From: an uncultured Gammaproteobacteria bacterium | Lineage (GTDB): Bacteria > Cyanobacteriota > Vampirovibrionia > LMEP-6097 | NCBI GenBank assembly: GCA_964597205.1 | Contig: CAZQXM010000005.1 | Coordinates: 1-34,863, forward strand | Direction of reading: 5' to 3' | Length of the DNA: 34,863 bases | Shown here: piece by piece, positions 4,358 to 8,582 of the stretch | Position numbering within the stretch: the first letter of the stretch is position 1 | How the letters are laid out: each line of letters starts with the position of its first letter | Program-made: the position numbers and the translations under genes | The notes under the pieces: generated by a model | What the model saw: the letters and a program-made list of their open reading frames with translations, nothing else | Told to the model about the DNA's origin: nothing | Database searches by the model: none

Positions 4358-5221
4358 GTGTATAACAGTGCGTTAGTTTCACAGGCCCGTACAGGGCAAC
4401 CACATAGTTTTGGTCTAGCCGTCGCTGCAGATGTTTCCGGACGAAGAATTGTCAGTTTTAGAAATGAACTTGCAGGCTCCCACACAGCTCTCTTAAGGAA
4501 TATTTGTAAACTACTAGGCGTTAAGAATTGTCTAACAGAAGAACAAGTTGAAGCTGTTAGTAAATTTGATGTGGGTCAGAAACGAAACTGGACAAAAGTA
4601 GTCAATGCTACATATTTAGAATTAAGCAAAGTTGAGAAAGAACTTACAAGCAACCCAACAAGAAGAACTCTTGCAGTTACTCGTGTTCAAGAAAGATTTA
4701 GAAAAGCAATTAAGCTTATATCAGGACGCTATAGTCATTGCTCCTCAGCACCAAAACTACTAGCAATACCTTTAATGCCTAAGAAGGTAAAAGCAATCAA
4801 AACAGGTAAAAAAGTCAAAGAAGATAAAGATGATATCGCCATGTGTGATGTGACCGCTACAGGAAGCACAGGATGGTTTTTCTTAGATCACTTAGTAAAA
4901 TACTTTCGGGATGATACTTTAGTTGATCATTTGCATAAAAGCCTAAAAGAACAAGTGAAAGTACCAAGATTTCTTATCGCATTATTGAAAAAATTCTTTT
5001 TTCAAGATGAGAAACCAAAATTTGTAAAACTAGAAGTCACTAGACTAGGTAGTAAAAAGTTAATTAACCAGTTTCTTAAAAAAGCAACAAATTACATAGA
5101 TATCTATAAAATACATCGTGGAAATAAAACAGCCAGAGAATATGCTATGTCTAAGCTTCACGATGAGCTAAGATCCAAGTTTCTTATCTTGAAACCAGCA
5201 AGATCTAAGCCAAAACTGTGA
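4358..5221 (+). CDS. Hypothetical Lys/Arg-rich basic protein
   Basis: 287-aa ORF filling the phoX-fliP gap. Extended -10 (TGtTAAGAT, 4342-4350) lies 7 nt before the GTG. No recognisable motif. Confidence 0.7.
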   Translation: MYNSALVSQARTGQPHSFGLAVAADVSGRRIVSFRNELAGSHTALLRNICKLLGVKNCLTEEQVEAVSKFDVGQKRNWTKVVNATYLELSKVEKELTSNPTRRTLAVTRVQERFRKAIKLISGRYSHCSSAPKLLAIPLMPKKVKAIKTGKKVKEDKDDIAMCDVTATGSTGWFFLDHLVKYFRDDTLVDHLHKSLKEQVKVPRFLIALLKKFFFQDEKPKFVKLEVTRLGSKKLINQFLKKATNYIDIYKIHRGNKTAREYAMSKLHDELRSKFLILKPARSKPKL

Positions 5222-5255: not shown

Positions 5256-5909
5256 ATGGAAGATCTTAGTAGACTACTTCCTGATTTAGAACCGAGCTTA
5301 CAGATTGTAGGCCTGCTTTTCCTTTTAAGTTTTATACCTATCATCGTAGTGTCGATGACACCTTTCTTACGTATCATCATGGTGATGTCATTAATCAGGC
5401 AAGCACTAGGTACTCAGAACTCGCCACCCAACATGGTTTTAATAGGTTTAGCTTTGGTGCTTACTACTTATGTCCTGGGACCAGAAGTCGATATTATTAA
5501 TAAAACTGCAATAGTACCGCTGGCTAATAATCAAATCGCTTTACCTGAAGCACTGTCCCGTACTTACGAACCTTTAAAGCAACATATGCTACGCAACGTT
5601 GATAGTAAAGATCTTAAGTTCTTTTATAAACTCAGCCGTGAGGAACTACCTAAAAAACCGGTTGATGTCAAGACTAGAGAGCTATCAGCTGCCTATTTAT
5701 TAGGTGAAATGCGCAAAGCTTTCCAGATTGGATTTTTAGTTTTCATTCCCTTCTTGGTGATTGACCTAATCGTTGCTAATATACTCTTAGCGCTGGGTAT
5801 GATAATGCTCTCGCCAACTATTGTGTCGTTGCCGTTTAAGATTATGATCTTCGTAGCGATTGATGGTTGGGATTTAATTATCAAGGGTCTTGCTCAGAGC
5901 TTTAATTAA
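5256..5909 (+). CDS. fliP: Type III export gate protein FliP/SctR
   Basis: TPFLRI, RQALGTQNSPPNMVL, AFQIGFLVFIPFLVIDL and LPFK..F...DGW. 217 aa with no N-terminal signal peptide. Confidence 0.93.
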   Translation: MEDLSRLLPDLEPSLQIVGLLFLLSFIPIIVVSMTPFLRIIMVMSLIRQALGTQNSPPNMVLIGLALVLTTYVLGPEVDIINKTAIVPLANNQIALPEALSRTYEPLKQHMLRNVDSKDLKFFYKLSREELPKKPVDVKTRELSAAYLLGEMRKAFQIGFLVFIPFLVIDLIVANILLALGMIMLSPTIVSLPFKIMIFVAIDGWDLIIKGLAQSFN

Positions 5910-5911
5910 AA

Positions 5912-6892
5912 ATGGATTGGATGCCTCAAGCAATTCGAGACGGTATTTTTACCGTGCTCTTTATTTCTGGACCTTTGGTCTTGCTTGCTGCTGCCTTGGG
6001 ATTAGTAATCGGTATTATTCAAGCAGCAACACAAGTGCAAGAACAGACATTGGGTTCTGCGGTAAAAATCCTTGGAGTATTTTTAGCGTTGATTATTTTT
6101 GGATTCTATATGTTCCAATACCTCAAACAGTACGCAACGCAAACTATTAATCGCGCCTTTAATTTAGTGCCCTCACTCTCTTCACACCCACTACCACCGA
6201 AAAAATTATTCAAACAACCAATCAAGAGTAGCGAAGAGACTGATCATCCGCTCTTCTCACCAGAAGAACTGGCTGAAACTGCACCAGCCTCTGGCGGCGG
6301 TCGCGGAGCTGGTGCCGATAATAAAGCTGCTGTTCTAGAAGAACCAGAAGTGGTAGAGGTAGTGCCGCCACCGAGTACAGACAAATTACCAGAGATTAAT
6401 TACCTCACCAGACCTCCAAGCGGTATTAAAGAAGCTATATTCCAAACCCTCACTCCAGAAAGCACAGAAGAAACTGAGCAAGAACCAGAACGCGAAGAGC
6501 CACCAGTTCAAGAAGCTACTACTAGACCAGCTGCGACACCAGTAAGCAGACCTGCCGCAACAAGACCAAGTCAAACTCAACAAGCTACAACAAGACCAGC
6601 TCAACAGCAAACTGCGCCAAAAGCAGCAGTTCAACAAACTCCTGTTACTAGACCAACTACCACTCAGCAAACTCGACCAGCTACAACAAGAGCAGCAGCA
6701 AGACCTGCAGCTAGGCCAGCTCCACGTCCGCAAGCGCCAGCACCGGTAGCAGTAGAACCAGTACCAGTAGCAAGAACCGAAGCTCCTACACGCAACGCTG
6801 ATCTAGAAGCTAGTCGTAATAGCCGCCGTGCAGCACTAGCACGTATTAAATCATCTATTAATGAAGTAGAAGGAGCAGCTGCGGCTGAGTAG
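5912..6892 (+). CDS. fliQ: Type III export gate protein FliQ/SctS with ~240-aa low-complexity C-terminal extension
   Basis: The first ~88 aa contain GLVIGIIQAATQVQEQTL. Lies between fliP and fliR. Confidence 0.88.
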   Translation: MDWMPQAIRDGIFTVLFISGPLVLLAAALGLVIGIIQAATQVQEQTLGSAVKILGVFLALIIFGFYMFQYLKQYATQTINRAFNLVPSLSSHPLPPKKLFKQPIKSSEETDHPLFSPEELAETAPASGGGRGAGADNKAAVLEEPEVVEVVPPPSTDKLPEINYLTRPPSGIKEAIFQTLTPESTEETEQEPEREEPPVQEATTRPAATPVSRPAATRPSQTQQATTRPAQQQTAPKAAVQQTPVTRPTTTQQTRPATTRAAARPAARPAPRPQAPAPVAVEPVPVARTEAPTRNADLEASRNSRRAALARIKSSINEVEGAAAAE

Positions 6893-6897
6893 TTAGC

Positions 6898-7680
6898 ATG
6901 GAACTACTTGCAGGATTTTTCAGACAATCAGCACTTAGTTCAGGTACCGAATGGGTAGCAGCAGCAAGCCTAGTTCTGGTAAGAGTTCTAGCCTTCTTAC
7001 ATGAAGCACCAGTATTTGGTCATAAAAATATTTCTACTTTAAGCCGTATTGGTTTTGGCATATTACTAACTATGATACTTATGGCTAGTATCGATATTCC
7101 TAAACCACCAAGCACTGGTTATTATTTACCTTGGGCGATTTTGATAAATGTAATTCTTGGATTATTAATTGGTTTCGTTGCTAAATTAATGTTCGAAACA
7201 ATAGTCGCTGGTGGGGAGATGATGGACTCATCAATGGGCTTCTCATCAGCACAAACTTTCGATCCGCACTCTGGATCACAAACTACCATCATGGGTAAAT
7301 TTATGTCAATGCTCTCGATTGTGGTTTTCTTTTGGGTGCGCGGACCAGAGAGACTAATCGAATCACTACACAAAAGTTTCGGCACAGTGGATATTTACGC
7401 ACCGACATTCACGGTTGATACCCTCAAAATCGTTCATTTAGTAGGTGATATCATCTCCATGGGATTCATCATAGTTAGCCCAATAGTCTTAACCATCATG
7501 GTGCTAGATATAGTGCTGGGCTTGATTTCTCGGGCTTCTCCGCAGATCAATGCCTTCCAGATCAGTTTTACTATTAAGCCTAGCGTTGGAGCTATCGTGT
7601 TCTTGCTGATTATGCCGTTATTCTTTATGGGACTAACTAATTTCTTCGGTAATGCCGGAAGATTAATAGGATTCAATTAG
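6898..7680 (+). CDS. fliR: Type III export gate protein FliR/SctT
   Basis: Hydrophobic 260-aa protein with R...F...APVFG, GEMMDSSMGFSSAQTFDP and GLISRASPQINAF. Confidence 0.92.
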   Translation: MELLAGFFRQSALSSGTEWVAAASLVLVRVLAFLHEAPVFGHKNISTLSRIGFGILLTMILMASIDIPKPPSTGYYLPWAILINVILGLLIGFVAKLMFETIVAGGEMMDSSMGFSSAQTFDPHSGSQTTIMGKFMSMLSIVVFFWVRGPERLIESLHKSFGTVDIYAPTFTVDTLKIVHLVGDIISMGFIIVSPIVLTIMVLDIVLGLISRASPQINAFQISFTIKPSVGAIVFLLIMPLFFMGLTNFFGNAGRLIGFN

Positions 7681-8582
7681 TGCCAACACTAATCACTAGG
7701 GCCAAATTAATATTGCTAGCAATACTGCTAGTACTTAGTTGCGCGCCATCTACAAAAGCTGAAGAAGAAAAAAAAGAAACCTTATTAGTGGTCGGTGTGG
7801 GCTACAACCAACTCAGTCCAGCAACCCGTCAAAGTATGGGACCAGTAAATGTTGTTGAAATCGAATTCACTCCTCAATGGCAGCGATACATTGATCAAAG
7901 TGATGCCGATAAAGTTATATTAAGACACCCTAGTGGTTACACAGCTCTCTATCATAAGGATGGGACCTTCTTGCGTGATTTAGGGACTAGTTCTGCTGCT
8001 TATGCCTATCCTTATACAGTACAAGGTACTAACACGCGACCTCCAGCTGAGGCTATAACTTCAACTCCAGACTGGCATCAAGTGGGTTACGCCACTGGTG
8101 GTCTAACTGATCCTTACAGACAATATGCTCCACCAGCATCTAAACGTAATTATCAATCACTATCACCAGGCTGGGGATATAATCGCGAGAAAGCAGCACC
8201 TAGTCGCAAAGATACTTTCTTTCAATTCCTGAGCTTCTTTCCAATAGATACAGTTACACCATTTAATTATCCTGGTACTTTTGACTCTGTCGGTGTGCCA
8301 ACTGCTTACGCACTGGGTTCTATACCGCATATCGGCGGCATGGCACTAGAGATGCGCGAAGCTAAAAAACAACGTGAACTCTATGATGCTAACGCAGCTG
8401 CTATTCCAGAACATGTAGAGTTCCCAGTACAGATGTACAACTCTCAAGACCCTAATAATCCTTTAACTCAGGATCCTAATTTTATTCGTATGTCACCAAT
8501 GCCGCAAGGGTTTGACATGAAGTATCCTAATTTTCAGCAGCAGGCAAATTACTATGCTCAATATGGCAGACCAAGTCCCTAA
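7680..8582 (+). CDS. Hypothetical exported protein, Pro/Gln/Tyr-rich, translationally coupled to fliR
   Basis: TAGTG stop/start overlap at 7680. Basic plus hydrophobic signal peptide ending VLSCAPSTKA. Confidence 0.75.
   Translation: MPTLITRAKLILLAILLVLSCAPSTKAEEEKKETLLVVGVGYNQLSPATRQSMGPVNVVEIEFTPQWQRYIDQSDADKVILRHPSGYTALYHKDGTFLRDLGTSSAAYAYPYTVQGTNTRPPAEAITSTPDWHQVGYATGGLTDPYRQYAPPASKRNYQSLSPGWGYNREKAAPSRKDTFFQFLSFFPIDTVTPFNYPGTFDSVGVPTAYALGSIPHIGGMALEMREAKKQRELYDANAAAIPEHVEFPVQMYNSQDPNNPLTQDPNFIRMSPMPQGFDMKYPNFQQQANYYAQYGRPSP

Follow-up and report, generated by a model that had tools for sequence, protein, structure and literature searches.

A long-tailed FliQ with a conserved C-terminal tip and its probable place in a second flagellum-type export core of Vampirovibrionia

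In the present study, we analyzed a 34,863-nucleotide stretch of DNA (the window; contig CAZQXM010000005.1 of assembly GCA_964597205.1, positions 1 to 34,863, forward strand), which was deposited as an uncultured Gammaproteobacteria bacterium and placed by GTDB in the class Vampirovibrionia (LMEP-6097), and focused on its fliQ gene at 5912..6892. Vampirovibrionia (Melainabacteria) are a non-photosynthetic sister class of the Cyanobacteria. To our knowledge, few parts of any type III machine are as small and as invariant as FliQ/SctS. The fliQ of the window, by comparison, encodes 326 amino acids (aa), in which a normal hairpin is followed by a tail of 237 residues. The explanation that we favor, with a probability of about 55%, is that this long FliQ is a maintained protein of a second export core, and that its tails serve as periplasmic tethers with docking tips. 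The source bin (1.8 Mb, 253 contigs, 92% complete, 5.4% contamination) is denoted G000 in the genome comparisons.

The fliQ open reading frame (ORF), on the plus strand, starts with ATG and ends with TAG at 6890-6892. It lies 2 nt downstream of fliP (5256..5909, plus strand, 217 aa; Pfam FliP, E 2.9e-68), and its stop is separated by 5 nt from the ATG at 6898 of fliR (6898..7680, plus strand, 260 aa; Pfam Bac_export_1, E 4.4e-52), which is assigned to the same gate. The hairpin domain, aa 1-89 (5912..6178, plus strand), was delimited by the Pfam match, the AlphaFold2 helices and the alignment to solved FliQ. Pfam PF01313 (Bac_export_3) matched aa 7-75 (E 2.4e-19, 69.5 bits vs a cut-off of 25; 73.5 bits in the whole-genome profile scan), and no further Pfam domain was detected in the 326-aa protein. 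AlphaFold2, run with an alignment of 22 sequences from the family and order of the window, predicted helices at 6-40 and 47-85 (pLDDT 70-91); the hairpin loop, QAATQVQEQTL, aligned with solved FliQ and was invariant in 22 relatives. The protein thus combined a domain over the cut-off, a two-helix hairpin with the conserved loop and a gene position between fliP and fliR, and it departed from the FliQ family in its length, since family members are single domains of about 86-95 aa. The NCBIfam equivalog models scored below their cut-offs, with 64.1 bits for flagellar FliQ (TIGR01402, cut-off 88.9) and 54.2 bits for SctS (TIGR01403, cut-off 76.5). Compared with canonical FliQ/SctS (PF01313; Salmonella FliPQR and SpaPQR gates, e.g., 6f2d, 7cgo and 6pem), the window FliQ shared the hairpin, the QxxTQxQEQT loop and the fliP-fliR placement, and both presumably stand as four copies round the gate base (PMC7064499, available part). 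However, the chains of all 7 distinct solved FliQ/SpaQ sequences were 86-89 aa long. A preliminary description, made from the window's letters and ORFs, had put this FliQ at about 3.7 times normal length, with a frame running some 240 aa past the domain without a stop and ending 5 nt before fliR, and these statements agreed with our measurements.

The tail (aa 90-326) was of low complexity, with 16.5% Ala, 15.2% Pro, 11% Glu, 11% Thr and 8% Arg, and could be divided into four plus-strand segments. According to the alignment and charge counts, segment 1 (aa 90-104, 6179..6223) is a conserved basic membrane-adjacent stretch, LSSHPLPPKKLFKQPIK; the region directly after helix 2 is basic, with 5 K/R and 0 D/E in aa 71-104. 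Segment 2 (aa 105-205, 6224..6526) is an acidic Pro/Glu-rich block with 23 D/E, 8 K/R and 14 Pro, defined by its charge counts, its dN/dS and a pLDDT below 50, and is predicted to be disordered. Segment 3 (aa 206-292, 6527..6787) is a basic Thr/Ala/Gln/Arg-Pro block with 11 K/R, 2 D/E and 18 Pro, in which the RP positions marked nine degenerate xxRPx units; 9 of the 10 RP dipeptides of the tail fell within aa 205-273. The tip (aa 293-326 and the stop, 6788..6892) is an amphipathic helix, DLEASRNSRRAALARIKSSINEVE..., identified by AlphaFold2 and a conserved motif. In the AlphaFold2 model, aa 104-290 mostly had a pLDDT below 50 and no confident structure, with a short helix at 172-179, and the terminal helix at 294-325 reached about 90. 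The acidic Pro/Glu segment, the roughly nine xRP/A units and the terminal amphipathic helix of the preliminary description were all recovered. At the DNA level, the tail region contained just two weak short repeats (6687-6720 and 6742-6770), and we therefore regarded its peptide repeats as degenerate. Searches of the tail alone against Pfam (E up to 1) returned nothing, the ESM Atlas gave no usable match, and Pfam detected no tail domain in 12 further long FliQ proteins. No 19-residue window of the tail was hydrophobic enough for a membrane helix (maximum Kyte-Doolittle value 0.46 vs 2.6 in helix 1). An antisense ORF within the tail (6386..6733, 115 aa, Cys/Ser/Trp-rich) was rejected as a by-product of the low-complexity sequence.

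Comparison with relatives indicated that 5912-6892 is very probably a genuine, selectively maintained fliQ, composed of a normal hairpin, a 237-residue low-complexity tail and a conserved terminal helix. A protein search with the long FliQ in 40 related genomes gave matches in 37, and all 36 homologous frames extracted were extended (136-323 aa), with no domain-length frame among them. Two word-indexed protein searches yielded 98 and 137 cluster representatives of 186-360 aa; hairpin identity was at least 64% among the 120 representatives listed, and those with a name were called solely "flagellar biosynthetic protein FliQ". Because such searches reach only close relatives, absence of the long FliQ elsewhere cannot rest on them. 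A control for other phyla was provided by 74 non-melainabacterial FliQ/SctS loci, in 72 of which 2-21 residues followed the FliQ domain; the remaining two (L069 and L074) were tandem FliQ-FliQ ORFs. In the 22-sequence alignment of the family and order, the tails had in common a membrane-adjacent consensus PRxNF(L/F) with an invariant P95, short islands and a C-terminal motif. The islands PLFSPEE, EPEVVEV and LPxINYL of segment 2 were conserved among G000, G001 and G006, and segment 3 was the most variable part in length and sequence. The tip motif, [RK]xS[LI][ST]DxLx[KR][LI][KR], ended most of the family and order homologues. Among the 123 representatives used for the motif count, 106 carried it within the last 32 residues by the strict pattern and 6 more by eye; 7 had a Trp tip, 2 were without the motif, 1 was partial and 1 was apparently chimeric. 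A 360-aa ORF that joined FliQ to a peroxidase domain on a 1.8-kb contig (P0104) was set aside as chimeric in appearance, and apparent FliP-FliQ fusions (ORFs of 326-406 aa in L050, L051, L052, L057, L071 and L098) proved to be upstream other-frame extensions over a separate fliP.

We further calculated dN/dS by the Nei-Gojobori method against two relatives; dS was saturated, and the figures are rough. The hairpin had a ratio of 0.05 and the tail one of 0.26-0.28, with 0.13-0.19 in segment 2 and 0.33-0.54 in segment 3. Contigs from two other studies covered 6227-6586 (X3) and 6103-6482 plus 6494-6649 (X5), and differed from the window by substitutions, without indels. The differences in the fliQ frame, at 6184, 6232 and 6466, were all synonymous third-position changes, and no indel was found across 6103-6649, which includes the stretch 6170-6200 where the preliminary description had advised checking the reads. 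Since the frame is conserved, the changes in independent contigs are synonymous and the tail dN/dS is about 0.26, we consider the tail to be maintained coding sequence and not the product of a lost stop, as the preliminary description had supposed. The comparisons of orthologue length and C-terminal conservation that it had called for also supported its view.

Copy numbers, gene trees and gene orders suggested that the long-tailed FliQ probably belongs to a second, divergent flagellum-type export core, hereafter set 1, and not to the ordinary flagellum. Many relatives hold an additional short FliQ elsewhere, of about 90 aa (frames 88-115 aa), which lies beside a longer FliP and is followed in some genomes by fliR-flhB. 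The Pfam scores were 78-105 bits for this short canonical FliQ vs 64-86 bits for the long type. Five genomes from three families (G000, G001, G019, G027 and G038) each carried at least two FliR, FlhB, FlhA and FliF, yet one FliG_C. In the source assembly, one FliP, one FliQ, four flagellins and one FliG were found, together with three matches each to FliR, FlhB and FlhA; the canonical fliP-fliQ pair presumably lies in the unassembled 8%. The third FliR/FlhB/FlhA copies of the source bin (matches on C73, C15, C103, C52, C53 and C161), where relatives have two, are a separate observation and could stem either from mixed strains in the bin, with its 5.4% contamination, or from a genuine third copy.

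A FliP tree of 103 rows was built by a quick IQ-TREE search with SH-aLRT support and a midpoint root. All 36 FliP sequences adjoining a long FliQ formed one clade (SH-aLRT 96), with the window FliP inside it. The neighboring clade (97) comprised flagellar FliP of Bacillota, Spirochaetota, Pseudomonadota and others, as well as four melainabacterial canonical copies, and injectisome-type copies of Chlamydiae and Proteobacteria lay further away. The FlhA tree revealed the same split, with support of 100 on both sides. Its set-1 side contained the FlhA on C53 of the source genome, the sole FlhA of four genomes with set 1 only, and the FlhA beside the second FliF in two complete genomes, and its canonical side contained the C52 copy of the source genome and the higher-scoring copies. 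The gene orders also differed. The canonical order was flgB-flgC-fliE-fliF-fliG-x-fliI, and the set-1 order was fliE-fliF-(338-398 aa, no family)-fliH-flhA. In other orders of the class, the set-1 gate genes were arranged as fliN-like-fliO-fliP-fliQ(long)-(X)-fliR, where the first gene encodes a 400-aa FliMN_C protein and X is an ORF described below; in the relatives of the source locus within the family and order, fliR adjoins the long fliQ. In the source genome, set 1 consists of fliP-fliQ-fliR, of flhA on C53, placed by the FlhA tree, and of fliE-fliF-(ORF without assignment)-fliH on C22, for which the assignment relies only on synteny and score class. The set-1 FliP has 217 aa, with the domain starting at residue 20 and no long N-terminal leader, and it exceeded the cut-off of one NCBIfam EscR/YscR/HrcR model (204 vs 179). 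Set 1 is probably inherited vertically through the class Vampirovibrionia.

We then screened one sample of 120 genomes of the class for FliQ, flagellin and FliG_C over its cut-off; related genomes in these counts are not independent samples. FliQ was present in 93 genomes and flagellin in 50, and FliG_C was found in the same 50. The families with two FliQ were exactly those with flagellin and FliG_C (f1 22/22, f2 1/1, f3 2/2, f5 14/14, f10 9/9 and f11 1/1). The long type occurred alone in 43 genomes (f6 24/24, f7 8/9 and f8 11/12), and flagellin was found in 0 of the 45 genomes of f6-f8, as was FliG_C over the cut-off (two sub-threshold matches). Families f4 (0/23) and f9 (0/2) were without FliQ, flagellin and FliG_C. 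The short FliQ thus tracked flagellin and FliG_C family by family, and the long-type FliQ lacked the co-occurrence with flagellin and FliG that marks the gate of a canonical flagellum. As the long FliQ is the sole copy in f6-f8, we considered whether it could be the flagellar FliQ of Melainabacteria, and we rejected this in view of the lack of flagellin and FliG_C over the cut-off in those families. Five set-1-only genomes (91-99% complete) each contained one FliF and one full-length FlhA, and four of the five contained 2-4 rod-type proteins. Between fliF and fliH of set 1, at the usual place of fliG, lies a protein of 338-398 aa without a Pfam or NCBIfam family (L134:11600-12793, L135:11266-12456 and L164:2733-3746, in other genomes of the class); on C22 of the source genome, this position holds just a 120-aa ORF (L138:809-1168). 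Across the sample, set-1 FliQ frames ranged from about 101 to 386 aa. Besides one full-length FlhA, genomes of f6 were observed to contain a further ORF of about 500 aa, whose FlhA match is confined to the C-terminal half (about positions 310-653 of the model; G028:C6:10760-11788, G034:C15:12305-13324 and G039:C8:59709-60731). In the flagellated families, Flagellin_N matches were very many in some genomes (30 in G013 and 25 in G020, both f1; 20 in G025, f3), and those of G025 formed a long tandem array on one contig.

Previous work on solved gates has described four FliQ per gate, a FliP-FliQ unit that is the structural equivalent of FliR, a periplasmic FliR C-terminus, and a conserved FliQ loop at the cytoplasmic base where the FlhB loop makes contact (PMC7064499, available part). 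Because of the homology to these gates, the tail of the window FliQ is expected to start on the periplasmic face, within the ring cavity, and set-1 FliQ can be inferred to stand as four copies per gate with its C-termini on the periplasmic side; the four subunits assumed in the preliminary description are a fair inference from the same source (PMC7064499). In our proposed mechanism, the four tails would start inside the basal-body cavity, and each would act as a Pro-rich, flexible tether that binds a partner through its conserved tip. Candidates for this partner are periplasmic accessory proteins whose genes lie next to those of the gate, namely Y, X and a lytic transglycosylase (SLT), and components of the machine's own ring or rod. 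Held by the tether, the partner would stay at the gate of what is probably a machine for secretion and not for swimming. This tether-and-dock reading was suggested by the tail middle, which drifts in length and sequence while the ends stay conserved within lineages, and we hold it tentatively, at a little less than even chances. The tips were helices in f1 and f2 and (S/T)WLN in f8; in f7, four tails ended in WW and a fifth (G029) in EEWL.

Three kinds of neighboring genes may encode tip partners, although none is universal. Directly downstream of fliR lies the gene of Y (7680..8582, plus strand), a signal-peptide protein without a known family, whose GTG start codon begins on the final base of the fliR stop codon; by this arrangement, Y appears to be translationally coupled to fliR. 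Of 19 family and order loci, 13 had a Y homologue directly after fliR, and a 14th had one about 1.8 kb downstream; one further homologue was partial. The protein is conserved through the family, with a mean column identity of 49%, and matched nothing in Pfam or NCBIfam. AlphaFold2 gave Y a mean pLDDT of 57.5, and only aa 31-105, a small alpha/beta domain, were confident; the motifs GWGYN, PxDxVTPFNYPGTFD and LPHIGG follow this domain. A wide fold search returned nothing above Z 5.8, and the matches were mostly long helices. In two other orders, fliQ and fliR are separated by X, an ORF with a signal peptide (L141:9495-9860 in G028, 122 aa; L144:8720-9844 in G025, 375 aa), with sub-threshold matches to the secretin/pilus N-terminal domain PF13629 (T2SS-T3SS_pil_N, E about 1e-3). 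BLASTP detected no similarity between Y and X, or between the X proteins of the two orders. The SLT gene precedes fliP in 4 of 5 loci tested. In the window, a 287-aa ORF without a family match (4358-5221) lies between PhoX and fliP; it is absent from a genome of the same genus (L004), in which PhoX directly precedes fliP, and its place is taken in other genera of the family by the SLT gene.

Several observations weigh against the explanation that we favor. By the positive-inside rule, the basic cluster of aa 71-104 favors a cytoplasmic side. The tail middle evolves fast, with dN/dS up to 0.54 at saturated dS, and the set-1 FliQ frames of f5 are only 101-160 aa long, so the tail is not universal in set 1; a set-1 gate can therefore work with little or no tail, which makes the tail a variable trait. 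In the source assembly itself, FliP and FliQ were each found only once. The trees come from quick searches, are rooted at the midpoint and carry SH-aLRT support only, and similarity to the query decided which outgroup loci entered them. The protein at the place of fliG has weak (0.76) Atlas leads to FliG clusters, so that a rotor protein may after all be present in set 1. Finally, Y was not beside fliR in 4 of 19 loci whose FliQ still carries the tip helix, and a genome of f8 (G030) with a (S/T)WLP/N-type tip has a locus with neither X nor Y.

The alternative that survived best is a tail without a specific partner, which would be a weakly constrained disordered spacer, an entropic cushion between gate, ring and membrane, or a tolerated drifting extension. 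The wide variation in length and sequence of the tail middle (frames of 101-386 aa), the low-complexity composition, the lack of any Pfam domain in the window tail or the 12 further long FliQ and the near absence of a tail in f5 are all in its favor. However, the tips are conserved within each lineage, short conserved islands lie inside the tail, dN/dS is below 1 in every segment, and the extension has been retained across at least 7 families. We therefore consider a partnerless tail unlikely. A second alternative places the tail in the cytoplasm, either because the chain returns there or because the topology of FliQ differs, with the tips docking on cytoplasmic parts of the machine; the candidates would be FliH/FliI, the protein at the place of fliG, or the FliN/FliY-like protein whose gene precedes fliO-fliP in other orders. 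Terminal peptides with Trp, like amphipathic helices, often serve as docking elements in the cytoplasm. The strongly basic stretch directly after helix 2 agrees with a cytoplasmic tail, as does the 400-aa FliMN_C protein at the start of the cluster in other orders. On the other hand, this basic cluster is not conserved in f6 and f7, and the tail, with its maximum Kyte-Doolittle value of 0.46, has no hydrophobic segment able to cross back. Solved gates, moreover, put the FliQ/FliR C-terminus in the periplasm (PMC7064499, available part), and a cytoplasmic tail is thus improbable.

The roles that the preliminary description had proposed for the tail were a ruler, a tether to the cell wall or to another ring, and a glycosylated or phosphorylated linker; the first two were weighed here for the gate of a rotating flagellum. 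Successive acidic and basic Pro-rich blocks do resemble periplasm-spanning spacers such as that of TonB, and four copies per gate would suit such a role (PMC7064499, available part). A ruler of fixed length nevertheless fits poorly, because close relatives differ several-fold in tail length, with set-1 FliQ frames between about 101 and 386 aa. The export gate of a working flagellum rotates together with the rod (PMC13710759, available part), so that any connection to a static wall would become wound up and is implausible there. We regard the ruler and the wall or ring tether in this form as very improbable. If set 1 does not rotate, the objection to a wall link falls, and the wall tether merges with the periplasmic tether that we favor. 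An artefact, whether from a stop that was lost or misassembled, from a chimeric contig or from two genes taken for one, might be suspected in a fragmented metagenome bin with 253 contigs and 5.4% contamination, but its probability is negligible given the same architecture in 36 other genomes and 137 protein clusters, independent contigs without indels, a conserved tip, and tight spacing to fliP (2 nt) and fliR (5 nt).

Flagellar export cores kept without flagella are known from other bacteria. Lysobacter enzymogenes OH11 reportedly keeps a flagellar type III export core (FT3SS) without flagella, and the basal bodies of Buchnera are a further example. These systems resemble set 1 in having gate, ring and rod genes without flagellin and a postulated role in secretion. 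Set 1 differs from them as a separate paralogous lineage, which coexists with a canonical core in flagellated relatives and carries a long-tailed FliQ. Like the SctRST of injectisomes, set 1 has a short FliP without a long leader that scores over the cut-off of one EscR/YscR/HrcR model; however, the injectisome FliP copies lie elsewhere in the tree, and the neighbors of set 1 are fliO, fliN-like, fliE, fliF and fliH. A variable Pro-rich charged linker with a short conserved end also occurs in the Pro-rich spacer of TonB, the C-terminal linker and peptide of FtsZ and the tail of SSB, and the likeness to the FliQ tail is one of design only. Partial flagellar gene sets have been described in Gastranaerophilales (preprint 10.64898/2026.04.24.720558; PMC4040986; available parts), and flagellar gene "subsets" in Melainabacteria have been read as ongoing loss or as possible secretion devices (PMC3787301; PMC4040986; preprint 10.64898/2026.04.24.720558). 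Neither two paralogous cores nor FliQ length was found mentioned in the available main text of these three sources, whose supplementary gene tables might show duplicates. Our literature searches listed nothing on a FliQ with a C-terminal extension or disorder; the one publication that joined FliQ with Melainabacteria just names the gene, and none of those listed under five order or class names mentions FliQ. On the evidence of the sequences compared here, the long-tailed FliQ would be an unprecedented tail on a canonical gate subunit and a marker of a paralogous flagellum-type core.

In solved structures, the FliQ chain comes to its C-terminal end where little room is left between the gate and the ring around it. 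Four tails of 240 residues at this point are structurally unexpected, and they imply spare room or contacts that are absent from the machines studied so far. The "incomplete flagellar gene sets" of gut and environmental Melainabacteria, taken as decaying flagella, rather resemble a separate paralogous export machine that has been maintained for a long time, and this opens the questions of what a flagellum-type core does without a filament and how new type III machines branch from flagella. A bolder proposal, which we hold to be less likely than not, is that set 1 is an unrecognized type III branch as old as Vampirovibrionia, with the long-tailed FliQ as its signature subunit and devoted to secretion or cell contact and not to swimming, in which the four tails form a branch-specific periplasmic docking cage. 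Such a branch would comprise FliE, FliF, FliH, FlhA, FlhB, FliOPQR, a FliN-like protein and a few rod proteins, and would be without flagellin or a recognizable FliG; it would stand apart from ordinary flagella and injectisomes. The conserved tips offer a concrete handle, as peptide bait, for finding the partner.

Covalent additions to gate subunits are tolerated elsewhere, as in the natural FliR-FlhB fusion of Clostridium (PMC7064499, available part; cf. NCBIfam NF009411, matched in the NCBIfam scan) and in tandem FliQ-FliQ proteins (L069 and L074). The parts added there are gate domains, whereas the window FliQ adds a low-complexity tail without a known domain. The tandem ORFs, each with two FliQ domains, were observed in a Synergistia metagenome-assembled genome (L069:3253-3849, 198 aa) and in one of Bacillota (L074:3256-3801, at least 182 aa). 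At the Synergistia locus, a further separate FliQ ORF lies just upstream, giving three FliQ domains in two genes.

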